This document shows positions 1 to 63,586 of a stretch of 64,000 nt of DNA, piece after piece (position 1 is the first letter of the stretch; each line of letters begins with the position of its first letter). A program made the position numbers and the translations under genes. The stretch lies in IMG/VR virus record IMGVR_UViG_3300022602_000027. One strand, given 5' to 3'. The notes under the pieces are model-generated. The model was given only the letters and a program-made list of their open reading frames with translations. It searched no databases and had not been told where the DNA came from. The DNA comes from a virus (taxonomy: Duplodnaviria > Caudoviricetes).

Positions 1-149
1 TAGTGCAAGCAGAAGCAGACGGACTTACAGATACAGTAACGGACATAGATGTAATGACCCTGGACGCTTAAGGGTTATTACAACAGGGGTTGACAAGGCT
101 CCTGTTTTCAGTTATAATACATACTTAAATTAATTAAACAGGAGCGACA

Positions 150-5397: not shown

Positions 5398-5465
5398 GTA
5401 TACAATAGACTTATGCGTTAGAGATAATGCATACATTTTTTAACAACACACACAGAGGTAACAAC

Positions 5466-5822
5466 ATGGCTACAGATAAGACTTTTAATGTTTTTGGAGT
5501 TTCTAAATTGAACGGTGAGTACAAGGTGCGCTTTGCCAATGACGTGATGCGTATTAAGGTCCTGGCTAAACACGGTCACGAGGATATTACGCTCGTTGAC
5601 TTGGAGAAGTCAGTGACTAAGTATGAGGGTATTAAGGCTATTGCCTCTATGCCTGAGTTTGCCAATGCATCAGCACAGGCGGCTATCACTGAGTACTTGG
5701 AGGAAAAGGCTCCTAAGGCTACAGCAAAACCTGCACCTAAGGCCAAGGCTACAGCGCCTAAGGCTAAGGCAGTTACACCTGCTAAGGTTGCAGTAACAGA
5801 GGACGAAGACGCTCCTTTCTAA
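5466..5822 (+). CDS. Hypothetical protein with Ala/Lys/Pro-rich tail
   Basis: Promoter 5378; AGAGGT RBS before ATG 5466; PKATAKPAPKAK repeats suggest nucleic-acid binding. Confidence 0.75.
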   Translation: MATDKTFNVFGVSKLNGEYKVRFANDVMRIKVLAKHGHEDITLVDLEKSVTKYEGIKAIASMPEFANASAQAAITEYLEEKAPKATAKPAPKAKATAPKAKAVTPAKVAVTEDEDAPF

Positions 5823-5826
5823 GCCT

Positions 5827-6009
5827 ATGTTCCTACAGTACGAAGTATGGGCTATCACCGACCAGCATGAAGAGCTGGTCGAGTGTGTACCTACCCTAAA
5901 GGAAGCAGAAGAGATAGCAGAGAACGAACGTGAATTTTGCGATGAGGTTTACATCGTAGAAGACGCAGATGGGGACTTGAAAGAGATTAGACGATTCCAG
6001 GGCCTATAG
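5827..6009 (+). CDS. Small acidic hypothetical protein
   Basis: 60 aa ORF whose TAG stop lies inside the tRNA 5' end. Confidence 0.6.
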   Translation: MFLQYEVWAITDQHEELVECVPTLKEAEEIAENEREFCDEVYIVEDADGDLKEIRRFQGL

Positions 6010-6076
6010 CTCAGTTGGTTAGAGCAGAGGACTCATAATCCTTTGGTCCCTGGTTCGAGTCCAGGTGGGCCCACCA
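6000..6076 (+). tRNA. tRNA-Ile2 (CAT anticodon, lysidine type; Met less likely)
   Basis: Acceptor GGGCCTA/TGGGCCC + ACCA, D arm GCTC/GAGC, anticodon arm GAGGA-CTCATAA-TCCTT, GGTTCGAGTCC T arm; pattern resembles enterobacterial ileX. Confidence 0.9.
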
Positions 6077-6080
6077 ATTA

Positions 6081-6110
6081 GAAGAGTGTTGTTTTCGCGC
6101 AACACTCTTC
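6081..6110 (+). terminator. Hairpin after tRNA
   Basis: 11-bp stem GAAGAGTGTTG/CAACACTCTTC. Confidence 0.6.
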
Positions 6111-6200
6111 TCTCACGAATAACCCTACAAAAAATAAGTTATTGACACTGGGTCCAAAATGCTGTATAATACATACTTACAAAGCAAAAAGGAGCGCACA

Positions 6201-6473
6201 ATGTTAACAGCAAAGCAAAGCATCTACGCACAAGTAGCAAAAGCAAAGTTAATTTTTAATAAAAAACTTAAGACATACAAATTAGTTTGTGCTTTTAATG
6301 TTTACGAGACAAAAAAGCAGTTTAACAATGTAGTTTATAAATTTCCTGTACAAGCAAAATGCGACTATGTTAGCGGGGACTTACTTGCTACTAATTTAGC
6401 GCAAGACTTAACTGTTGCGCTTAATAGTGCTAAAAAAGTTATGCGTACAGACAACATTGTAATAGTAGAGTAA
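6201..6473 (+). CDS. Basic hypothetical protein (TC/CC-depleted)
   Basis: Promoter 6142, RBS 6191; start re-assigned to 6201. Confidence 0.72.
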   Translation: MLTAKQSIYAQVAKAKLIFNKKLKTYKLVCAFNVYETKKQFNNVVYKFPVQAKCDYVSGDLLATNLAQDLTVALNSAKKVMRTDNIVIVE

Positions 6474-6551
6474 TTTAGTAAACTAATACATAGCGCACTT
6501 GACATTTTGGAAAACGTGTGTTATACTACACGTACACTAAAAGGAGCATGT

Positions 6552-6752
6552 ATGCAAAAGCGTTTTGTAGTTGTAGCACAGGAATTGTACGTAAATGAAG
6601 CTGGAGAAAATACTAGCTATAACGGACATACGGCAATGAACTATTACATAGAGGACACTAAGACAGGCGAGGTGCGCTTGCTAGACGAGTGTATACTGTG
6701 TGACATGGAAGTGTTTACTAAACGCGATTTTAACGCATTGGAGGTAGTATAA
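6552..6752 (+). CDS. Hypothetical protein (TC/CC-free, no Pro)
   Basis: Promoter 6499, RBS 6543; start re-assigned to 6552. Confidence 0.72.
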   Translation: MQKRFVVVAQELYVNEAGENTSYNGHTAMNYYIEDTKTGEVRLLDECILCDMEVFTKRDFNALEVV

Positions 6753-6753
6753 T

Positions 6754-6945
6754 ATGACAAGCAATTACGCAAAAGCGTTTGAACTACGCAAAGCAATTAA
6801 ACTACTAAACGAAGCAGACGCTATTGTACAAGCGGCACTAGGGGCTAGCGACAACTGCTACGAAGTGCATTGTGCGCTAGAGGACTTAGAAAGTACACTA
6901 GAGGACTATGCGGACAATTTGATTGAAATGCAAATAACTGAATAA
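6754..6945 (+). CDS. Helical hypothetical protein (TC/CC-free, no Pro)
   Basis: GGAGG RBS; coupled to upstream stop. Confidence 0.72.
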   Translation: MTSNYAKAFELRKAIKLLNEADAIVQAALGASDNCYEVHCALEDLESTLEDYADNLIEMQITE

Positions 6946-6954
6946 GGAGCGAAC

Positions 6955-7302
6955 ATGCAGACAACAGGCAACAAACTAACAATTAAAAACATTACACAAG
7001 AAGACGACAGCTTAACTACGCACTACACATGCAATGAGCGAGTGGTGCTGGCTGGAGACAGTATTTGGGACTGTACACTAACAGAAGTTACAGTTACGGA
7101 CATTGTGGTACATGCTTATGAAGACTACAAAATGGTTAACGTATACTACGACGTTGACGGCGTAGAGGGTACTGAAGTTGAAGACAGCTGGCGCATGTAC
7201 ACAGACAGTGGCATGGAGGAAGCTATTAGCGTATTGTTGGGAGACAGCATTAGCTTTACAGAGCAGGGAATGCAAGAGGACGGCATAGCTAGCATGGAGT
7301 AG
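6955..7302 (+). CDS. Acidic hypothetical protein (TC/CC-free, no Pro)
   Basis: RBS 6946. Confidence 0.78.
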   Translation: MQTTGNKLTIKNITQEDDSLTTHYTCNERVVLAGDSIWDCTLTEVTVTDIVVHAYEDYKMVNVYYDVDGVEGTEVEDSWRMYTDSGMEEAISVLLGDSISFTEQGMQEDGIASME

Positions 7303-7316
7303 CATAAAAACAACAA

Positions 7317-7339
7317 TATCCCTACACTCTGTAGGGGTA
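7317..7339 (+). repeat. Promoter-associated stem-loop (copy 3)
   Basis: TATCCCTAC-ACTCT-GTAGGGGTA upstream of the -35 at 7351. Confidence 0.8.
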
Positions 7340-7410
7340 TTATACAGGGGTTGACAAATGGGCCCAATCCCTGTATAATACGAAGTATAGTAACTAACAA
7401 GGAGCGAACC

Positions 7411-7743
7411 GTGGGATACTTTACAGATTGTGATTTTGATTCAACCCTGGACATGATTGATTGTGTTAATGAGGTTGTGGAGCGTCATGTACGCAAGATG
7501 GAACGATGCACACCAAACGAACTGGGCTTGGACATGCGCTGTGGCCCTGTCTACATCGACCGCGATGAAGAAGTGATTGCTGTAAGCCACTCTAGTGCCA
7601 TTGACTACTATGGCGGCTTTGAGTATATCAAAGAGGATGAGGGTCGGAAGACTTGTGGGGATTATACATTCTTTACAACCGAGTCCAGCCGTGTACAAGA
7701 CTGCTTTGATCATTTGAACGAAGTTGACAACGAGGAAGAATAA
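7411..7743 (+). CDS. Acidic hypothetical protein
   Basis: Promoter 7351, RBS 7401, GTG start at 7411. Confidence 0.75.
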   Translation: MGYFTDCDFDSTLDMIDCVNEVVERHVRKMERCTPNELGLDMRCGPVYIDRDEEVIAVSHSSAIDYYGGFEYIKEDEGRKTCGDYTFFTTESSRVQDCFDHLNEVDNEEE

Positions 7744-8237
7744 TGAAGCGAGCCTTAGTCCTAGCCTTGTTCCTAGCCAACGGTGCCTGGGCTAAGGCTC
7801 CTGTAACCATCACCGGCCCTCAGATTATGGTAGGCGCCAAGTTACCTAACCAGACCAAGAAGGATGAGGATTGCCTAGCCTATTCTATCTTCCGTGAAGC
7901 CGGCAACCTAAACGAAGCAGGGCAGTATGCCGTGGCGCAGGTACACATCAACCGCGCCCGTGAAGGTAGCTGGGGCCCGCACCTATGCCAAGTGGTGCAT
8001 GCCAAGGCTCAGTTCAGCTGGACCAAAGAACGATATGTGGCTTGGACTAAGGATCAAGCCAAGCGGTATCATGCCATCGCCCACGCGGTGATATCAGGTG
8101 TTGTAGGTGTGCCACAGATTGCATCAACCGAGATCCTGCACTATCACGCCAACTATGTGCATCCAAAGTGGGCGGATTACGGGCAAAAGGTTGCGGTTGC
8201 AGGGCCACACATCTTCTACAAGGATGTGCCCTATTAA
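7743..8237 (+). CDS. SleB-like cell wall hydrolase (Hydrolase_2)
   Basis: Signal peptide; CLAYSIFREA..., AVAQVHINR, QFSW, LHYHANYVHPKWA and HIFY motifs. Confidence 0.85.
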   Translation: MKRALVLALFLANGAWAKAPVTITGPQIMVGAKLPNQTKKDEDCLAYSIFREAGNLNEAGQYAVAQVHINRAREGSWGPHLCQVVHAKAQFSWTKERYVAWTKDQAKRYHAIAHAVISGVVGVPQIASTEILHYHANYVHPKWADYGQKVAVAGPHIFYKDVPY

Positions 8238-8301
8238 CCCTATTGGTTGACGGGTTATCGGTTTGGTGCTATAATTAAAACATATTAACAAGGAGCGAAC
8301 G

Positions 8302-54894: not shown

Positions 54895-55325
54895 AAGAAT
54901 CAATAGTTTGTAGCGGAGCATTGTTTTACGCTAAATCTACACGACGATTCCTTTTACTGCAAAAAGCCCACGGTAAACACGAGGGCACTTGGGGGCTAGT
55001 GGGTGGTACTAACATTGTTGGAGAAACTCCATGGCAGGGGTTACAGCGTGAAATTACTGAAGAAATTGGTGTACACCCAAAAATAATTAAAACAATCCCC
55101 TTAGAAACATTTGTTTCAAACGATAGAGTTTTTAACTTTCACACATACTTGTGTGTAGTCGAAGACGAATTTGTGCCAACTTTAAGCGATGAGCACCAAG
55201 GGTGGGCGTGGGCTATTATAGATCGTGCACCTAAACCCCTGCATCAAGGATTGCGTAATAGTTTTTCAAGCAAAACTATTCGTACAAAATTACAAACAGT
55301 ATTTGATTTAGTGGAGCTAATCTAA
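54876..55325 (+). CDS. Nudix hydrolase
   Basis: GG...GETPWQGLQREITEEIG Nudix box; LSDEH. Confidence 0.88.
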   Translation: MENHTIKESIVCSGALFYAKSTRRFLLLQKAHGKHEGTWGLVGGTNIVGETPWQGLQREITEEIGVHPKIIKTIPLETFVSNDRVFNFHTYLCVVEDEFVPTLSDEHQGWAWAIIDRAPKPLHQGLRNSFSSKTIRTKLQTVFDLVELI

Positions 55326-55945
55326 TGGATTCAAGAATTGATAACATATACGTTACCCCAATATATGTTGCTACTATTACAGAGCAAGAGGGATTCAATT
55401 TAATACAGCAAGAAGCTAAAAAAGCAATTGAAGCTTCTAAATTTTCAAGCAGAGAAGAATGGGGTCCAACTCATTATCTTTCTTCTACTACTTTTATTAA
55501 TGATGTTATTAAAGAACAAAACATGCAGATATTTTCTGCGGTAATGCATTCTCATTTAAAAGAGTATATGGATATTGTTGGGTTTGCCATGAGACCTTAT
55601 ATGGTAACTAGCTGGTTTAGTCTATTCCAACAACATCAATATGGGCAAATTCATACTCACGGAAACGCTGATGTTAGCGGTTGTTACTATGTAGAAACTT
55701 CAGGTGACGATGGAGATTTCTTTTTTGAAGACCCAAGACCGTCTAATGAAACTAGTTATGTGTTCAGCGGAAGATACATGTCTGGTCGTCGAGGATATAA
55801 ACCAAAGGTAGGACAAATGTTAATGTTTCCCGGTTACTTACCTCACGGTATTAAAACAAATACTAAAACTACAGATAGAGTTAGTTTAAGTTTTAATATT
55901 AAATTTATAGATCCACGATGTGAATTAAAGCAGAACAATGGTTAA
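55325..55945 (+). CDS. 2OG-Fe(II) oxygenase (HxH type)
   Basis: HTH..VSGCYY..MFPGYLPHG..RVSLSFN. Confidence 0.87.
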   Translation: MDSRIDNIYVTPIYVATITEQEGFNLIQQEAKKAIEASKFSSREEWGPTHYLSSTTFINDVIKEQNMQIFSAVMHSHLKEYMDIVGFAMRPYMVTSWFSLFQQHQYGQIHTHGNADVSGCYYVETSGDDGDFFFEDPRPSNETSYVFSGRYMSGRRGYKPKVGQMLMFPGYLPHGIKTNTKTTDRVSLSFNIKFIDPRCELKQNNG

Positions 55946-56591
55946 AAAAATAGGAATTTTTGGAGATAGTTTTTCAGACCCAACGTGGAATGATAATAGT
56001 TACCAATCATGGCCTGAAATGTTAGCCGACCAATATCAAGTTACTAATTATTCTAAAAATGGATCTAGTCTTTGGTATTCTTATCAAAAATTAAAAAAAC
56101 ATATTTCAGAATTTGATGCTTGCGTTTTTGTTGCTACAATATGGGGAAGATTTTATCTAGAAGGATTAGATAAGCATTTAAATATTAATACAAATACATG
56201 GCCAACACAGCACGGTGTTAATTTAGGACAAACTTATTATGAATACTTTTTTTCGTTTGAGAGAGAACAAGTATTTCATAACTTCATGATTAACGACATA
56301 TTAAATTTAAAAAATGTTATTTTTATTCCAGCATTTCAAGAATGTGTAATTGATAACAAAGGTATTTCTCTTAATCATTATGCTAATGCTGAACTTCATC
56401 ACTATGGAGTATTAAATTATCAAGGTCCAGATGACAGAAAATGTCATCTTACTATTGAAAACAACAAGACAATTTATAAAAAAGTCTTAAATGCTATTGA
56501 ATCTAATTTAAATAGCATAGAGTTTTCAATGGACGAATTTATTCCGCCGTCTGAGCCGTTTAATTTTTATCTAAATCGAAACATAAAATGA
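55938..56591 (+). CDS. SGNH-hydrolase-like hypothetical protein
   Basis: IFGDSFS, NYSKNGSS and CHLT. Confidence 0.6.
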   Translation: MVKKIGIFGDSFSDPTWNDNSYQSWPEMLADQYQVTNYSKNGSSLWYSYQKLKKHISEFDACVFVATIWGRFYLEGLDKHLNINTNTWPTQHGVNLGQTYYEYFFSFEREQVFHNFMINDILNLKNVIFIPAFQECVIDNKGISLNHYANAELHHYGVLNYQGPDDRKCHLTIENNKTIYKKVLNAIESNLNSIEFSMDEFIPPSEPFNFYLNRNIK

Positions 56592-57199
56592 CTATAAAAA
56601 TTATAGAAAATTTAATACCATTAACTTGGCAACAAGATTTATTTGCATCTGCCAAAGAATGTTTCTATATCTATAAAGAAAATACATCTTATAAAGTTGA
56701 TGAGGCTACTTTTATTCAAGGAATGGATATTTTTATCGATGAAAATACCGTTGATACTTTACAGTTTGTTCATTATATAAACTGGGGAGCTCGTGATCAC
56801 AATCACATGTACCCTTTTATGAAACCATTAATTCATATGTTAGGGCAACAGCTAGGAAAAAAAATTAATAGAGTTCATAGAATGAAGATTAATCATACAT
56901 GTCCCCAACCAAATTTTACTGAAAATAATTATAATATTCCACATACAGACGATCCAGACCCTAAAAAATTTACAGCTATCTACTATATTAATGACAGTGA
57001 CGGTGATACATTTATTTTTAATGAAATGTATAATACAGAATGGCAAACAAAACCGATTGAAAAATTAACTATAGCAAGACGAGTTACTCCTAGAGCAGGA
57101 ACTGCTGTAGTATTTCCGGCAACACAACTACATGCTAGTTCAAATCCAATTAATACTAAAAGTAGATGGGTCCTAAACATTCTATTTGAGATTGAATAA
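56588..57199 (+). CDS. 2OG-Fe(II) oxygenase (HxD type)
   Basis: PHTD..YYINDSDG..HASSNP..R. Confidence 0.87.
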   Translation: MTIKIIENLIPLTWQQDLFASAKECFYIYKENTSYKVDEATFIQGMDIFIDENTVDTLQFVHYINWGARDHNHMYPFMKPLIHMLGQQLGKKINRVHRMKINHTCPQPNFTENNYNIPHTDDPDPKKFTAIYYINDSDGDTFIFNEMYNTEWQTKPIEKLTIARRVTPRAGTAVVFPATQLHASSNPINTKSRWVLNILFEIE

Positions 57200-57801
57200 T
57201 GAATATTGATCGATGGTTTCCTACTGTTATTAGTTGTTCTGATGATAATTTGACAGATAAGTTAGATATCTATCGTTCTTACTGCGAGGAAATAACTAAC
57301 GGTATTCCTCTTAGTAGACCATTTACTGGATCTCAACTAGTAAGTACGTTTAATCAACCAATGCCACAGTATGATCGTCCTATAGAAAAAGATTTAAGAT
57401 TTAACGAGTTATTTGATCTTATACTTGAAAAAGGATCAATGTTTGCAGAATTTTTAGGTTACAAATATAACTTAGAAATATCTCATGCTTGGGTTAATAA
57501 AATACAAGCCAACGATTACCACGAATTACATAACCATGCCCTAGGAGGTAATGCATTAATATCAGGAGTGTTCTATGTATCTGCGCCCTCAAGTGCATTT
57601 CTTAGATTTAGAGACAATATTGAAACATATAGTCCAGTTCCTCCTACAGCGCATACTCCTTACAATAACAAACATGCCACATATCAGTGCTTACCTGGAA
57701 GATTAATTCTTTTTAAATCTGATGTATTACATGGATACGATTCGCATCTTTCAGATGATGTAAAATATAGTATTGCTTTTGACTTATCGGTGAAATTATG
57801 A
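57199..57801 (+). CDS. 2OG-Fe(II) oxygenase (HxH type)
   Basis: HNH..ISGVFY..ILFKSDVLHG..SIAF. Confidence 0.85.
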   Translation: MNIDRWFPTVISCSDDNLTDKLDIYRSYCEEITNGIPLSRPFTGSQLVSTFNQPMPQYDRPIEKDLRFNELFDLILEKGSMFAEFLGYKYNLEISHAWVNKIQANDYHELHNHALGGNALISGVFYVSAPSSAFLRFRDNIETYSPVPPTAHTPYNNKHATYQCLPGRLILFKSDVLHGYDSHLSDDVKYSIAFDLSVKL

Positions 57802-58424
57802 TTAACAAAGACTTCGCGTTTATTAAACCATTTGGGCCTGTTATATACAGTAATCTTCTTAATCCAGACGTAGTTAACGTATTGAATGAATGCAAAACGG
57901 TATCAGAATATATTGGTGATGATATTGGTTATATGCTTGCTGGAGCGATTAATTCTCAACTGAGATTAGTTAGAACCGCAGAACAAGAACAAATAATATA
58001 CGATCATATTTTTGAACATTTTGCTGCCTATATGGATAGAGATCCCGAATCACTTAAAAAAGAATATAAAATACCCAACAACGGTATCTGGTTAAATGTG
58101 CAACGAGCAGGCGAATTTAACCCGCCTCATCACCACGATGGACATTTTTCAGGGGTAATTTATCTAGAAGTGCCTCCTGAACTTGCAGAAGAAAATAAAA
58201 AGAAACCTGTAGGATTCCACTTACACGGCGAAATAAGTTTTTATTATGGCGACGATATTGGATGTCAAACGTATTTTCATATGATGCCAAGAGTTGCGCA
58301 GATGGTTATATTTCCAGCAAAGCTACAGCACGGAGTTCACCCTTTTTATAGTGATGTAAGACGAGTTTCAGTTGCATTTAACCTTTATAAACTTGCCGAA
58401 CCAATGCTGTTAGTTGATTCATAA
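57798..58424 (+). CDS. 2OG-Fe(II) oxygenase
   Basis: NPPHHH..FSGVIY..FPAKLQHGV..RVSVAFN. Confidence 0.85.
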   Translation: MINKDFAFIKPFGPVIYSNLLNPDVVNVLNECKTVSEYIGDDIGYMLAGAINSQLRLVRTAEQEQIIYDHIFEHFAAYMDRDPESLKKEYKIPNNGIWLNVQRAGEFNPPHHHDGHFSGVIYLEVPPELAEENKKKPVGFHLHGEISFYYGDDIGCQTYFHMMPRVAQMVIFPAKLQHGVHPFYSDVRRVSVAFNLYKLAEPMLLVDS

Positions 58425-58481
58425 CTATCTCCAACGGTAAAAAATACTACTAAATACCCTACAATTAAGGAATGAATTACT

Positions 58482-59270
58482 ATGGATTCAAATTTACCAA
58501 TCGAACACTCACAAGAAACTCCAGTTGCGGTTAAACCAAAACGCCCTTTAGAAATTATCTATTTGGAAAATGTTGCCCGCTCAGACACATTTGCTAATGT
58601 ACTAGGGGATACTGATAAACCAGGTTGGGAATTTGGAAGAATGACTGACGAAACCGAAGATAAAGATACTGCTATTATGTTCTGGCAACAAAATATGCAA
58701 CGTAGTAGTTGGTGTTCTGAAGTTTTATGGTATGAATTATTAGCTAAATTAGAAGAAACTCATCCAGCTACAAAAAATTATCAATTTAAAGTAAAAGATG
58801 TTACCTGCGGCGGAAAAACTTTTGGCCAAGATGGCGGTATTCATACTGATTACGACTTTCAATTTACAGAAGAGGGTGACGGTTGGATGACTGTTTGTTT
58901 CTTTCCTAATAAAGAGTGGAATCCAGAATGGGGCGGAGAGTTTCAATTTTTTAATGACGCAGGGGATGTAATTGCAAGTTATTATCCAAAACCTAATACT
59001 GCGCTTGTATTTGATTCTAATATTCCGCATAGAGGTTTAGCTCCAACTCGTAATTGTAACAGATTGCGCAAATGCTTAACTTTTAAAACTTTTGTACATA
59101 AACAATGGTTTTTAGAATCCAATCCAGATGTAAAAATGATTGACGGTAGTGTTGTTCCCGGGCTAGTTAGTACACCAACAAGAACAGACATGGGTAATAC
59201 TAATTCTCCTGAACCAGCGGCAATTTTTACAGATCCAACGGCACCAGCTAAGAAAAATATTGTAGGTTAA
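58482..59270 (+). CDS. 2OG-Fe(II) oxygenase (P4H-like)
   Basis: IHTD..WGGEF..FDSNIPHRG..R. Confidence 0.87.
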   Translation: MDSNLPIEHSQETPVAVKPKRPLEIIYLENVARSDTFANVLGDTDKPGWEFGRMTDETEDKDTAIMFWQQNMQRSSWCSEVLWYELLAKLEETHPATKNYQFKVKDVTCGGKTFGQDGGIHTDYDFQFTEEGDGWMTVCFFPNKEWNPEWGGEFQFFNDAGDVIASYYPKPNTALVFDSNIPHRGLAPTRNCNRLRKCLTFKTFVHKQWFLESNPDVKMIDGSVVPGLVSTPTRTDMGNTNSPEPAAIFTDPTAPAKKNIVG

Positions 59271-59272
59271 TT

Positions 59273-59482
59273 ATGGATCCAGGAATAAGAAGAACACATT
59301 TTCCAGATAGATTACTATTTGTTCCTATTAAGATTAGAGACGAACGTCTTGCAATTTGTAACAAATGTCCTAATAATAAAAATTTAGAATGCGTAGTAAA
59401 TGGAAAACCTGTATACTCTATGGTCACTAAAAAGAATTTAATGTGTCCCTTAGGATTTTGGTCTACACATTATGGCAGTTAA
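59273..59482 (+). CDS. Small Cys-rich protein
   Basis: RLAICNKCP..C..CPLGFW. Confidence 0.7.
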   Translation: MDPGIRRTHFPDRLLFVPIKIRDERLAICNKCPNNKNLECVVNGKPVYSMVTKKNLMCPLGFWSTHYGS

Positions 59483-60200
59483 AATTGGTTGGTGTCCATG
59501 GCCTGAAAAAACACATTTAACTAATGACGGCCCTACTACTTATTACGGTCATGCCGAAATATTAGCTATACCTCCTCAGAAATTAGATACTTGGGATAAC
59601 AGTCATTCAGGGTTTACTAAATGCCCTGCTTTTAGTACATACGTTTCTAACACCTACATGATTTTTTCTAACATTGATGTTGAATTAACTTGGGATGCTA
59701 CTAACAAAGTATTAAACAGTAATTTACCCCAACATGCATATAATACTCATATTAATTTGCATTATCAAGATTTTGTACCAGATGTAGATCCTCCAATTGT
59801 TGCTTTAATGTCTAGTATGTTGTTTGTGGCCGACCAGCCAGTTGTAATGGAAATGACACCTCCTTACAATCATATCGACCCAGCATGGCGTATGATGCCC
59901 GGGTCTTTTAATATCTATAATTGGTTTAGACCAATTATACCTACTTTTGAAATGTTACATACAAAAGTATCTATTAAGCGTGGACAACCATTAATGTATG
60001 TTCGTTTTAAAACTGAAAATTTTAAAGATAATATTGTATTAGAACGTATAGAACGTACAGATGAACTAGAACATTTAGTTAATAGTTGTTTGTCAGTTAA
60101 AACATATCAACCATCCTTAAGTTGGCGTATTGCTAACTCTTTAAATCCCATTAGACCTAGGAAACTTTTAAAATCATGCCCACTAAAGAAATGGCTTTAG
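59472..60200 (+). CDS. Hypothetical protein (possible dUTPase-like beta fold)
   Basis: KCPAF..MPG..IKRGQPLMYV pattern seen in oxygenase clusters. Confidence 0.55.
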   Translation: MAVKIGWCPWPEKTHLTNDGPTTYYGHAEILAIPPQKLDTWDNSHSGFTKCPAFSTYVSNTYMIFSNIDVELTWDATNKVLNSNLPQHAYNTHINLHYQDFVPDVDPPIVALMSSMLFVADQPVVMEMTPPYNHIDPAWRMMPGSFNIYNWFRPIIPTFEMLHTKVSIKRGQPLMYVRFKTENFKDNIVLERIERTDELEHLVNSCLSVKTYQPSLSWRIANSLNPIRPRKLLKSCPLKKWL

Positions 60201-61417
60201 ATCTATTTAGACCGAAGACTTTAGTAGTTGTTGGTGCAGGAACTGCCGGGATACAAGGGGTATGTCATTATCTTGCGTATCTAGCCAGTCATGGTTGGAT
60301 AATAACTCTTATTCATTCTCCTAAAATTAATATATTAGGCATAGGAGAAAGTACCAATCCTCCATTTGTAGAAGCATTAGAGGATGGAGCAAATTTTAAT
60401 ATACTTGATGATACAGAAAAACTAGATGCTACATTAAAATTTGGAACCCATTATGTAAATTGGAGGGACAATCCCTTTACGGTTCCTGTGCTTACTGGAC
60501 ATGCCGCTTTGCACATTAATACTTTTAAATTAAAAGAGTTTGCACTTCCACGTTTAAAATCAATATGGGGAGACAAATTTCAAATTATCGAAGGAACAGT
60601 CTCTGTATTAGAAAATTACGAAGAATCAGTACGTGTTGTAGTCGACGATAAAGATTATTATTTTGATTATGCTGTTGATAATCGAGGATTTCCAGATTCG
60701 TATGATGACTATAATATAATTGAAGACAATCCAGTTAATCATGCACTCATCCACAACACCCCTGAACGACTTGATTTAAATGCTACACTACACCAAGCAA
60801 CACCAGACGGATGGATGTTTGGTGTTCCGTTAACATCGAGAACTAGTTATGGGTATTTGTTTAACGACAAATTAACCACAGTAGAACAAGCAAAAATTAA
60901 TTTTAGTAAAGAAATTAATGTACCTGTTGAAGAATTAAACAATATAGAATATAAATTTAAATCATATTATGCAAACAAAGTCTTAGATAAAAGAATTATT
61001 AAGAATGGAAATAGGGCTGTATTTTTTGAGCCTATGTTTGCCAACAGTTTATGGTTGTATAAAAATATTGATAAGGCATTTATTAGTTACATGAAAGGAT
61101 TTTTTACAGAAGAAAAAACAAATGAAATATTCAATAATATATCTCAAGATGTAGAAGAGTTAATTTGTTATTTTTATCATGGCGGCAGCATTTATAACAC
61201 AGAATTCTGGCAACTTGTTAAGCCCTATGCTAGTAAAAAATTAGAAAATAGTAGATCTTTTAATGTTATGAAAAGTCTAATGCGTCGACAATATAAGTTT
61301 AAACAATTTGATCCAACAGTAAACGAATACAGTTGGGTGTTTGGTGAAAAACACATGTTTAGTATAGATGAAAAATTAGGTTATAATTATTTTTCTGCCC
61401 CAGATGAAAACAATTAA
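60191..61417 (+). CDS. Flavin-dependent halogenase-like protein (divergent)
   Basis: GAGTAG, GIGEST, ATLK, GWMFGVP and FFEP. Confidence 0.8.
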   Translation: MALDLFRPKTLVVVGAGTAGIQGVCHYLAYLASHGWIITLIHSPKINILGIGESTNPPFVEALEDGANFNILDDTEKLDATLKFGTHYVNWRDNPFTVPVLTGHAALHINTFKLKEFALPRLKSIWGDKFQIIEGTVSVLENYEESVRVVVDDKDYYFDYAVDNRGFPDSYDDYNIIEDNPVNHALIHNTPERLDLNATLHQATPDGWMFGVPLTSRTSYGYLFNDKLTTVEQAKINFSKEINVPVEELNNIEYKFKSYYANKVLDKRIIKNGNRAVFFEPMFANSLWLYKNIDKAFISYMKGFFTEEKTNEIFNNISQDVEELICYFYHGGSIYNTEFWQLVKPYASKKLENSRSFNVMKSLMRRQYKFKQFDPTVNEYSWVFGEKHMFSIDEKLGYNYFSAPDENN

Positions 61418-61440
61418 ATATCACAAATATAGGAAATAGT

Positions 61441-63027
61441 ATGCCAAGTATAGACAAAATTGTAGTTTTAGGTGGAGGTTCAGCTGGGTGGATGACAGCC
61501 GCAACACTTAAACATCATCTTCCCAACAAAGAAGTATATGTAATTGAAAGTCCCAACATACCAACTGTAGGAGTAGGTGAAAGCACTATTGGTCAAATCA
61601 ATGCTTGGCTACATGATTTAGATATTAAAGACGAAGATTGGATGGTTCATTGTGATGCTAGTTATAAACTAAGCATCAAATTTACTGACTTTTACAAAGA
61701 AAATTCAGGAGGATTTCATTATCCATTTGGACTTCCACATGTCGATGGCACTATATTTGGAATTAATGACTGGTACTTTAAGAAAATGAAGTATCCAGAA
61801 ACTCCTAACAGCGATTACGCTTATACTTATTATCCAGCTACTATGCTTTCTGAGGCAAATAAAATTATCACAAATGAAGATAATAAAATGCCGTCATGGA
61901 GATTTAGCAATGATACTGCTTATCATTTTGATGCGGCAAAATTTGGTGCATGGTTAAGAGACGGGTATTGCAAGCCTCGAGGAGTTATACATATTCCTAG
62001 CGAAGTAATTAGTGTACAAACTAATGATAAAGGTGTTGAGAGTCTTACATTAACTGACGGTAGTTTAGTTACTGCTGATTTGTTTATTGATTGCACAGGA
62101 TTTAAGGCAATGCTAATTGATAAAGCATTAGGAGTTCCTTTTATACCCTTTGATCATATGTTGCCTAACAACAGTGCATGGGCTACAAGAATTCCTTATC
62201 AAGACAAAGCAAAAGAATTACAACCATATACTAATTGTACTGCTATTGAAAACGGTTGGGTTTGGAACATTCCTCTTTGGAGTCGAACAGGAACTGGGTA
62301 TGTTTACAGTGATAAGTTTGTAAGTGATGCAGATGCCTTAGAACAATTTAAAAATTATTTACGCAGACGTGATCCTGTTGTTATTCCAGAAGAAATAATT
62401 GATACTTTAGAATTTAAAAATATCAAAATGCGCATTGGTATACATAAAGAAATTTATTCTAAAAATGTATGTGCTATTGGTTTAGCGGCTGGATTTATTG
62501 AACCTTTAGAAAGCAATGGATTATTTACTGTACATGAATTTGTTACTAAATTAGCAAAAACTTTGCGAAGAGAAAGTATTAGTCAGTGGGATAAAGACAC
62601 GTTTAATACTAGTTGCCGTAGAGATTTTAAAACATTTGCACAATTTGTTTCATTGCACTACGCTCTAAGCCAAAGAGATCAAACAGCATATTGGCAAGCA
62701 ATAAATGAAAAACAATTTAGTCTTGACATGGTTAATGACAATATAAACAAATCCGGGTTTGAAGATTTAATGTTTAGTAGAATGAATGGCAATACATACA
62801 CATTAGATTTAGGCGGAATACCTGCTATTGCTGCCGGCATGGGATATTTTCCATTAGACGAAAGTAGTGTTAAACGCAGTATGTATGTTAATAATCATAC
62901 AATGTTACGTGAAGTTATAGAAAATACACTCGAACGCTGGAAAACACAAGAAGCAGAATGGCAATCTATTGTCAACGAAGCTCCTACCCTACTTGAATTT
63001 TTATCTGAAATGTATGCTTCTAAGTAA
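61441..63027 (+). CDS. Tryptophan halogenase family protein
   Basis: GGGSAG, VGEST, ASYKLSIKF, FIDCTGF, GWVWNIPL and FIEPLES. Confidence 0.9.
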   Translation: MPSIDKIVVLGGGSAGWMTAATLKHHLPNKEVYVIESPNIPTVGVGESTIGQINAWLHDLDIKDEDWMVHCDASYKLSIKFTDFYKENSGGFHYPFGLPHVDGTIFGINDWYFKKMKYPETPNSDYAYTYYPATMLSEANKIITNEDNKMPSWRFSNDTAYHFDAAKFGAWLRDGYCKPRGVIHIPSEVISVQTNDKGVESLTLTDGSLVTADLFIDCTGFKAMLIDKALGVPFIPFDHMLPNNSAWATRIPYQDKAKELQPYTNCTAIENGWVWNIPLWSRTGTGYVYSDKFVSDADALEQFKNYLRRRDPVVIPEEIIDTLEFKNIKMRIGIHKEIYSKNVCAIGLAAGFIEPLESNGLFTVHEFVTKLAKTLRRESISQWDKDTFNTSCRRDFKTFAQFVSLHYALSQRDQTAYWQAINEKQFSLDMVNDNINKSGFEDLMFSRMNGNTYTLDLGGIPAIAAGMGYFPLDESSVKRSMYVNNHTMLREVIENTLERWKTQEAEWQSIVNEAPTLLEFLSEMYASK

Positions 63028-63586
63028 TTTTTTATATGAATTTCATTGGGATGAATTTAATATTCATCGAGATGCTCTTATAGAGCATTGTTTAAAAAAT
63101 GAAAAACCTAATACTATAGAATCAAATATTGCTGTAGATGCAAAAACTAATCTTTGGGAAAGCACATTTCATTTTTTAGAAGATAATAATCCGGCAGTTG
63201 TTGCACTAAAACTATGGATGGTTTGTGCTGTTGAAGATTTTATCTGTCGATCTAATCATAAAAAATATAAACTTGCAATAACAGAGTGTTGGGCACATCT
63301 TACAAGGACTAACGGATGGCATGCTCCTCACGCTCATCCAGGTAGTACATGGTCTGGAATATTTTATGTTGATGAAGGTGATAAAAATTGCGGGGGTACT
63401 ACTTGTTTTATTTCGCCATTTAATGTTGAACGTAAACCTGGATTAGATTTCTTTCAAAATGAATGCCGGGTAGTCACCAAACCCGGCATGATGATTATAT
63501 TTCCTAGCTCTCTTATTCACTACGTGCAACCTTACATAGGCACAGCACCAAGAATTACGATAGCATTTAATTCTATCTGTATTTAA
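63014..63586 (+). CDS. 2OG-Fe(II) oxygenase (HxH type)
   Basis: HAHP..WSGIFY..FPSSLIHYV..RITIAFN; start re-assigned to ATG 63014. Confidence 0.85.
   Translation: MLLSNFLYEFHWDEFNIHRDALIEHCLKNEKPNTIESNIAVDAKTNLWESTFHFLEDNNPAVVALKLWMVCAVEDFICRSNHKKYKLAITECWAHLTRTNGWHAPHAHPGSTWSGIFYVDEGDKNCGGTTCFISPFNVERKPGLDFFQNECRVVTKPGMMIIFPSSLIHYVQPYIGTAPRITIAFNSICI

Follow-up and report, generated by a model that had tools for sequence, protein, structure and literature searches.

The 64-kb stretch of DNA analysed here (IMG/VR record IMGVR_UViG_3300022602_000027; hereafter the window, with positions counted from its first letter) belongs to a giant freshwater phage that has not been cultured and carries an island of about 1 kb whose coding strand contains no 5'-pyrimidine-C-3' step (YC, i.e., TC or CC). 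The replicative helicase and the large terminase of the phage share about 51% identity with their counterparts in Pseudomonas phage PA5oct, Agrobacterium phage Atu_ph07, and Sinorhizobium phage Phosso, and the hosts of the closest cultured relatives are Pseudomonas, Agrobacterium, and Sinorhizobium; psbA was not found in the large relatives, which therefore bear no cyanophage signature. The first 12.5 kb of the window form a dense early block on the + strand, made of small orphan genes with strong GGAG-type ribosome-binding sites and of 19 near-consensus TTGACA-17-TATAAT promoters. Consensus sigma-70 early promoters and adjacent stem-loops surround these small genes, as in the promoter-early stem-loop (PeSL) arrays of other phages. 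The island lies within this block and comprises four small genes, named A to D, and two promoters, P1 and P2 (Table 1).

Table 1. The YC-free island and its flanks, in window coordinates (aa, amino acids; pI, isoelectric point).
Feature	Position	Strand	Description
tRNA-Met	6000-6076	+	Upstream of the island
13-bp hairpin	6080-6111	+	Directly after tRNA-Met; -18.7 kcal/mol, z -6; contains YC; closes the upstream transcription unit
ACCCTAC word	6122-6128	+	Upstream of the first island promoter
Promoter P1	6142-6170	+	TTGACA-17-TATAAT, 12/12
Gene A	6201-6473	+	90 aa, basic, pI 9.6, orphan, 3 YC
Strict YC-free stretch	6346-7318	+	3' third of gene A, promoter P2, all spacers, genes B-D
Internal promoter P2	6499-6527	+	TTGACA-17-TATACT, TG before the -10, YC-free
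Gene B	6552-6752	+	66 aa, acidic, pI 4.5, orphan, 0 YC, no Pro
Gene C	6754-6945	+	63 aa, acidic, pI 4.2, orphan, 0 YC, no Pro; family of 10 in relatives
Gene D	6955-7302	+	115 aa, pI 4.1, 0 YC, no Pro; conserved core gene of the island
12-bp stem-loop	7315-7341	+	End of the island; first post-island YC in its 5' arm and loop
Next early promoter	7351-7379	+	12/12; YC in the spacer; opens a YC-normal unit
Family 22 gene	7411-7743	+	First gene past the island, 21 YC

The first-pass annotation of the window, made from its letters alone, had reported that TC and CC are missing from 6347-7318. Our recount (on the + strand unless stated) moves the left edge to 6346 and gives a YC gap of 974 nucleotides (nt), flanked by TC 6344 and CC 6345 on the left and by TC 7319 on the right; the two TC and one CC announced for 6156-7318 were counted exactly (TC 6223, TC 6344, CC 6345). 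All 165 C residues of the stretch are preceded by a purine (98 AC and 67 GC), and GA and GG are abundant on the same strand (70 and 46), which bears out the strand specificity of the effect. The stretch is made of 18% C against 25% G, with 60% purines; 66 YC are expected from its own base composition and 85 from the window mean, whereas none is observed, and 20,000 mononucleotide shuffles gave 65.9 YC on average (standard deviation 5.7) and never fewer than 44. The second-longest YC-free run in the window measures 144 nt and the longest on the other strand 141 nt; no 300-nt segment elsewhere in the window holds eight YC or fewer, and neither another dinucleotide nor another place in the window, on either strand, displays a comparable gap. 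An assembly or sequencing artefact, named at first pass as what could undo the observation, does not account for it, because a DNA contig of independent origin, obtained from a sediment metagenome of 2012, agrees with 6048-6984 without a single difference. The same DNA recurs in at least 14 freshwater metagenome runs from many studies, each holding at least three-quarters of the words sampled from 5800-8300. Two weaker depletions had also been suggested, at 1-56 and in parts of the GP88 gene: the former indeed has 0 YC, while 150-833 in GP88 carries 49, a normal number. In frame 3 the bases 1-56 (+) read as the acidic tail of an open reading frame truncated at the window start, so that the window may be immediately preceded by another gene devoid of YC; among the fetched loci described below, nothing homologous to these bases was found.

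It might be argued that the cause lies in the proteins or in their translation, i.e., that proteins free of Pro and of TCN-encoded Ser happen to be clustered here, or that particular tRNAs are avoided. Proteins B, C, and D do lack Pro and write Ser with AGY codons only, in agreement with the first-pass reading. However, when the proteins are held fixed and codons are drawn according to the usage of neighbouring genes, synonymous resampling leaves 10-18 YC per gene (17.7 predicted for A, 9.7 for B, 11.5 for C, and 17.1 for D), and the numbers actually carried (three in A, none in B, C, or D) were reached in 0 of 5000 resamplings. In addition, the ban runs across codon junctions, untranslated leaders, spacers, and internal promoters, so that the effect goes beyond codon bias as had been proposed, and there is a D homologue that has prolines and a normal YC content. 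The junction and non-coding counts already refute a protein-level cause, to which we give next to no credit.

The purge is not a peculiarity of one genome. Gene D has 676 metagenomic homologues; protein-level counts were made on the first 120 of them (52-100% identical), and the surroundings of D were fetched from 4 ENA/JGI and 42 IMG/VR loci. The homologues on the IMG/VR viral contigs are 49-81% identical to D, and 36 of the 42 have no YC at all where about 28 would be expected, the other six having between 2 and 6; the YC-free run surrounding D extends over 340-1357 nt depending on the locus. Among 25 distinct YC-free D genes the median nucleotide identity is 71%, and 39% of the third positions differ at conserved four- or sixfold degenerate residues without a single YC having been fixed. 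YC density in the + strand open reading frames of the fetched loci is bimodal, with 97 frames at zero and the bulk at 0.05-0.12. The depleted families are A, B, C, D, and some 20 other small orphan families that adjoin D in varying combinations, while every other conserved early family is YC-normal; about 20 neighbouring early units carry 6-12 YC per 100 nt. It is worth mentioning that seven contigs (L018, L030, L033, L036, L041, L044, and L023), three of which are 188-221 kb long, start 8-620 nt upstream of D or inside it, probably owing to an assembly break caused by strain-level variation of the cassettes just upstream of D; a physical genome end beside D was ruled out, as the contigs start at differing positions.

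The uniqueness of the island within a genome could be appreciated in the 353-kb relative G001 (IMGVR_UViG_3300044640_001495; 98% complete according to CheckV), which was read over its whole length and contains only one island, of 922 nt, the next YC-free run on either strand being 160 nt. This island sits mid-way in a 30-kb block of about 30 consensus promoters, away from the edge of the block. The promoters in question are sigma-70 promoters on the minus strand at 310-340 kb, and 27 more are scattered on the + strand at 20-130 kb, a distribution that suggests two blocks transcribed by the host polymerase. The distribution of the purge is patchy: a distant marine homologue of D (L048:3001-3327, contig PBJN01000001.1 of a Porticoccaceae metagenome-assembled genome bin), 38% identical and also placed behind a consensus promoter, has 33 YC in 327 nt and several prolines, and hence proteins of the D family can exist without the purge. 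A relaxed state is also seen in some close relatives, among them loci L005, L006, L008, L013, L024, and L036. The first 50 kb of PA5oct, including its 39-kb terminal repeat, which is crowded with small unannotated genes, contain no YC-free run above 187 nt; tblastn searches of D and A against 50,697 phage records gave no match, and a DNA search with the island region matched only the tRNA. Altogether, the purge is conserved through the clade and unique within the genome.

The first-pass annotation had listed, as one of its alternatives, a saturation of C>T changes at dipyrimidines, either by deamination of ultraviolet photoproducts or by a deaminase, on a non-template strand left unrepaired. 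Both ultraviolet light and APOBEC enzymes classically act at TC and CC, and TT is mildly over-represented in the island (dinucleotide rho 1.37 vs 1.04). Nevertheless, the codons forced out (NCC, NTC, TCN, and CCN) were replaced mostly by A-ending ones: ACA rises from 36 to 70% and GCA from 34 to 58%, and the share of ATA goes from 12 to 50%, while T-ending codons, which directional YC>YT changes would have increased, went down (ACT from 29 to 19%, GCT from 30 to 18%). C following a purine is enriched (GAC 85% vs 54%; rho 1.69 for AC and 1.63 for GC) and AGC codons are raised too. C>T decay would do the opposite on both counts. The imprint on proteins tells the same: the loss of Pro expected from the earlier annotation is nearly complete, with one Pro in 14,685 residues, and dipeptides that would force a YC at the codon junction were removed rather than retained, with [DNHYCF][QHP] found once against 211 expected and S[QHP] never against 73 expected. 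In the non-coding DNA within islands, pooled over non-redundant loci, 5.7 kb contain 0 YC, against about 440 expected from neighbouring non-coding DNA. All reading frames are intact, their conservation extends over the 676 homologues, and no stop was created.

The clearest evidence of selection comes from the family 22 gene, which lies outside the island in the window and serves as a natural recoding control. Most relatives carry 14-26 YC in this gene, whereas the orthologue at 6613-6945 of locus L010 has none, despite 84-85% protein identity to its counterparts L016:6709-7050 and L019:6698-7030; this copy has its own promoter and adjoins D. Three TCG codons for Ser have become AGC, four CGT or CGC codons for Arg placed after Y-ending codons have become AGA or AGG, a conserved Pro has been replaced by Thr, and TTC by TTT. 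Recoding thus depends on context and takes place inside the YC-free block, and family 50 is split in the same way between YC-free and YC-normal copies. Changes such as TCG to AGC or CGT to AGA need several steps that are not C>T, and a mutational process would have struck just one small block in 353 kb. For practical purposes a mutational footprint is already refuted, and we regard it as very improbable; the purge results from selection at the nucleotide level.

The next question is which molecule bears the constraint. Across the loci, the last YC on the left either falls in the first promoter's spacer, directly before the -10, or belongs to the 5' arm of an ACCCTAC...GTAGGGT stem located upstream; the first YC on the right stands in the 5' arm of the stem-loop that follows the stop codon of D or in the spacer of the next promoter, and promoters internal to the islands are YC-free. 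In the window, the spacer of P1 (GGGTCC) holds the final YC cluster before the transcript start, and P2 is itself free of YC, as expected if it is also transcribed from P1. The ACCCTAC elements that the annotation had placed at both boundaries are confirmed at 6122 only, since the right edge reads TCCCTAC and forms the 5' arm of the 12-bp hairpin; in the relatives, stem-loops of the form ACCCTAC...GTAGGGT stand at the island edges, with ACCCTAC as their 5' arm. No U tract follows the 7315-7341 stem-loop on the + strand. Given that the edges coincide with promoters and stem-loops, the constraint tracks the transcript, or the strand that is displaced while the transcript is made. Gene A is the least strict of the four, its YC sites being TC 6223 and TCC 6344-6346, the latter encoding the Pro of an FPVQ motif common to most, though not all, relatives; the median YC density of this family (26 members in the relatives) is 0.017. 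An absence of structure in the messenger RNA (mRNA) was considered as the purpose of the purge and rejected, as the B-D RNA folds slightly better than its shuffles (z -3). As a side observation, the island promoters (6142 and 6499 in the window, and those of L025, L045, L011, and L038) lack the GG found ahead of the -35 in almost every other early promoter, and in relatives they are found inside a covarying inverted repeat, GCACACACTTG ... CAAGTGTGTGC, spanning the -35 and the spacer. Upstream of the island, at 5426-6028, the gene of a 131-aa Ala/Lys-rich protein and the next small gene are covered by perfect contigs of 591-603 nt in three lake metatranscriptomes, the best RNA support of the region.

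If the displaced DNA strand were the target, single-stranded DNA exposed in transcription bubbles or R-loops would be attacked by a TC/CC-specific deaminase, a DarT-type ADP-ribosyltransferase, or a nuclease, and the sites would be selected away. The strand specificity and the match of the edges with the transcribed region agree with such a protection of the non-template strand, and APOBEC-type deaminases do prefer TC or CC. On the other hand, DNA damage would be as harmful in the 20-30 or so other early units that have the same promoters and a normal YC content, only one island exists in 353 kb, a synonymous C>U change on the non-template strand costs nothing and would exert no purging selection, and the DarT motifs TNTC or TYT leave the loss of CC unexplained. 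We therefore consider this possibility improbable. Even less can be said for a constraint on the template strand, which, as the complement of a YC-free coding strand, is free of 5'-GR-3' (R, purine). It would have to lack this step if the phage modified G or another base there, leaving a modification-free template to the host RNA polymerase; 7-deazaguanine, inserted by DpdA at GA or GGC, provides an example of such a modification. Yet the TGT/DpdA family (PF01702) is absent from the large relatives G001, G002, and G003 although 14 of 14 control genomes were matched, and a normal GR content is seen on the templates of all other early units, which the same polymerase reads; this makes this explanation highly improbable. 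Since a DNA lesion would be equally damaging in the other early units, the level of selection appears to be RNA rather than single-stranded DNA. The one protected block per genome points in the same direction, as such specificity is explained only if it is the survival of particular messages that matters.

The proteins encoded in the island give few clues by themselves. Neither Pfam nor PHROGs returned a match for A-D or for ten other island families, and the ESM Atlas yielded nothing usable. The AlphaFold model of D (predicted local distance difference test, pLDDT, 82) had no match in the PDB with E < 0.1 by Foldseek and a best Z of 4.7 by VIA-align, and its only match in the AFDB was one uncharacterised homologue; the model of A (pLDDT 84) corresponds to no solved fold, with a best VIA-align Z of 4.8 and only vague RNase-H-like rows. 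D homologues contain 21% Asp plus Glu and 3% Lys plus Arg (n=120; pI 4.1). D is thereby a small, highly acidic early protein in the manner of the DNA mimics Ocr and ArdA, but it resembles none of them in sequence or fold (Pfam, PHROG, Foldseek against the PDB, and VIA-align). The island families, at least 24 in number, are orphans of 47-130 aa shuffled around D, mostly with a pI of about 4.1; A and families 48 and 49 make up a basic minority (pI 9.4-10.3). By analogy, such an array of small acidic early proteins looks like an arms-race locus devoted to counter-defence or host takeover, and D might, we infer, inhibit or outlast whatever reads YC.

The first-pass annotation had also raised the evasion of a YC-specific factor targeting DNA or RNA. 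As a class, though not for any particular factor, this idea is supported by the conservation of the purge, its imprint on proteins, and the context-dependent recoding, and of the two levels the evidence points to RNA rather than DNA. It is tempting to hypothesize that the island mRNAs escape an enzyme, ribonuclease or modifier, that acts on single-stranded RNA at YC, and this is the reading that we tentatively favour, as a leading possibility rather than a probable one. The island would consist of a few early units transcribed by the host RNA polymerase, whose mRNAs have been stripped of every single-stranded YC step. The candidate enzyme could be a dinucleotide-specific ribonuclease or an mRNA-modifying toxin, belonging either to the defence of the host clade or to the shut-off machinery of the phage itself; the recoded messages would be immune to it, and the island proteins would still be made while other messages are destroyed or blocked. 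D and the changing set of small acidic or basic orphans would then neutralise or outlast the enzyme. The 3'-most gene D is the cleanest of the island and the promoter-proximal gene A retains a few YC, a gradient that fits protection gene by gene better than protection from polarity. Sensitivity to a single hit would explain the absolute character of the purge, its cost in amino acids, the cleanness of D, and the protection of individual genes, and an agent restricted to the clade would account for the normal YC content of the marine homologue, for the relaxed state of some close relatives, and for the island-free first 50 kb of PA5oct.

The transcription termination factor Rho, a candidate that the earlier annotation lacked, has to be weighed against such an enzyme. 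The primary site of Rho has six clefts that accommodate one single-stranded 5'-YC dinucleotide apiece (PMC12360218, PMC5314796), and mutations of single YC measurably lower both termination and ATPase activity (PMC5314796). In a host endowed with Rho, a YC-free, purine-rich RNA with more G than C would offer no rut site, so that the units would be transcribed to their end whatever the state of their translation, and D might be a Rho antagonist. We gave heavy weight to the exact match of the motif, namely either pyrimidine followed by an obligatory C in single-stranded RNA only, the more so as the term "YC dinucleotide" is used in the bacterial literature almost only for Rho. The island transcript has no single-stranded YC and less C than G over its length, YC returns only in stems at the island ends, and a constitutive, near-universal factor suits the high conservation within the clade. 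Rho requires, however, several suitably spaced YC within 60-90 nt (PMC5314796). Isolated YC should thus be harmless, and their total absence over 1-1.4 kb, at the price of amino-acid changes, exceeds what evasion needs. The units are short, at 0.4-1.3 kb, and their promoters match the consensus and their ribosome-binding sites are strong, as in the 20 or so undepleted early units in their neighbourhood; gene A, close to the promoter where loading matters most, is the least clean; and a universal factor does not explain why the marine homologue, the relaxed relatives, and the first 50 kb of PA5oct do without the strict purge. A complex prediction of D with Escherichia coli Rho returned "no answer" with a score of 0.00, which is no evidence either way. 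On balance we hold that Rho-blind transcripts are unlikely, though far from negligible.

Several points also weigh against escape from an RNA enzyme. No ribonuclease or modifier specific for YC is known in bacteria. RegB, EndoU, barnase, and HEPN (PF05168) were not found in G001-G003, a search that covers the phage side only, and D and A show no likeness to any inhibitor or nuclease of solved structure. A defence that varies from strain to strain would be expected to leave a patchier conservation than 36 loci out of 42, and the avoided motif coincides exactly with the known ligand of Rho. A weaker objection comes from the three lake metatranscriptomes, in which perfect RNA contigs lie on the neighbours (5426-6028, 7767-8172, and other stretches) and none on the island; this does not favour an unusually abundant or stable island message, but contigs report presence only and so are not evidence of silence. 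More tentatively still, one may picture stealth messages: in this clade of giant phages from fresh water, the messages for first-line counter-defence genes would have been rewritten, even at the price of proline and of dozens of dipeptides, to offer no target to an undiscovered immune effector that cuts or modifies RNA at YC, or to a shut-off RNase that the phage itself injects.

Avoidance of a motif read by an RNA-directed factor is a logic already known. In our searches of the literature we met no description of a natural transcript from which all YC had been removed, and a natural, absolute purge of a dinucleotide class in a phage, specific to one strand and to one transcribed block per genome and conserved through a clade, appears to be new. 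The island would offer a clear quantitative case of selection on phage RNA sequence overriding protein sequence; it would mean that the infected cell contains a reader of pyrimidine-C in single-stranded RNA, powerful enough for 1 kb to have stayed clear through deep divergence. As far as we searched, either outcome would be new, whether a Rho escape written in the transcript itself or the footprint of a dinucleotide-specific defence or shut-off enzyme directed at RNA. The island also designates D, along with some two dozen families of small acidic orphans, as candidates for host takeover or counter-defence; should the messages indeed be stealthy, the island would mark a new specificity of RNA-targeting defence together with more than 20 orphan families that counter it. 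Strand-specific islands free of a motif might then serve as a method to search for such systems and their counterparts, with GA for CmdT and ACA for MazF as analogues. Elsewhere in the window, at 55325-63586 (+), seven 2-oxoglutarate (2OG)-Fe(II) oxygenase genes (PF13759/PF13640) stand in tandem with two genes resembling those of flavin-dependent tryptophan halogenases (PF04820), an array that may be a cluster for metabolism or modification of the type usual in aquatic myophages.

Several known systems share part of this behaviour. Phages avoid restriction sites, including the one-orientation bias of EcoP15I sites in T7, and there too selection removes target motifs; but restriction avoidance concerns double-stranded DNA, the whole genome, and sites of 4-6 bp, whereas the island is strand-specific, limited to a transcript, based on a dinucleotide, and imprinted on proteins. 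In vertebrate viruses, CpG is depleted against ZAP and UpA/UpU against RNase L, i.e., viral RNA sheds a dinucleotide that a host factor reads in single-stranded RNA, at a cost in codons and amino acids. That depletion is partial, genome-wide, and eukaryotic, while here it is absolute, concerns the YC class over about 1 kb of some 350 kb of a phage genome, and has a hypothetical reader. The PeSL cassettes of T4-type phages are shuffled as modules, and the dense early consensus promoters and stem-loops that bound small shuffled orphans, and that form the island edges, recall them; dinucleotide-free coding is no part of the PeSL description, though, and in the present phages only one cassette group per genome is YC-free. 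As for rut sites, the single-stranded motif is the same and a C-poor, purine-rich RNA makes a poor substrate for Rho. The known escapes from Rho (N and Q of lambda, the put RNAs of HK022, Psu of P4, coupled translation) rely on proteins, RNA elements, or translation and not on transcripts cleared of YC.

Precedents for the reading that we favour are found among enzymes that act on RNA at short motifs. SisCsx1, a cOA4-activated HEPN ribonuclease of a type III-B CRISPR-Cas system, cuts single-stranded RNA strongly at 5'-C-C-3' and weakly at 5'-U-C-3' (PMC6754442), and is thus a defence RNase whose cut sites approach the motif avoided in the island. It is, however, archaeal and prefers CC far above UC while the island avoids TC and CC equally; no HEPN (PF05168) gene was found in G001-G003, and no link ties Csx1 to the phage or to its host. 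The toxin CmdT ADP-ribosylates GA in single-stranded mRNA and blocks its translation (PMC11618068), and Tth-MazF1 cuts RNA at the two-base site UG (PMC13107127). Finally, mRNAs engineered to be ACA-less escape E. coli MazF and underlie a single-protein production system (PMC13107127, PMC9102682). These are laboratory designs directed at a 3-nt motif, whereas the island is natural, is cleared of a degenerate dinucleotide with the loss of Pro and many dipeptides, and would evade a nuclease that is hypothetical. In the island, nonetheless, the motif is missing wherever the message is single-stranded, to a degree that neither codon bias nor the amino acids encoded can explain, and motif-free messages that stay translatable while all other mRNAs are cut are the very logic proposed here for the phage.

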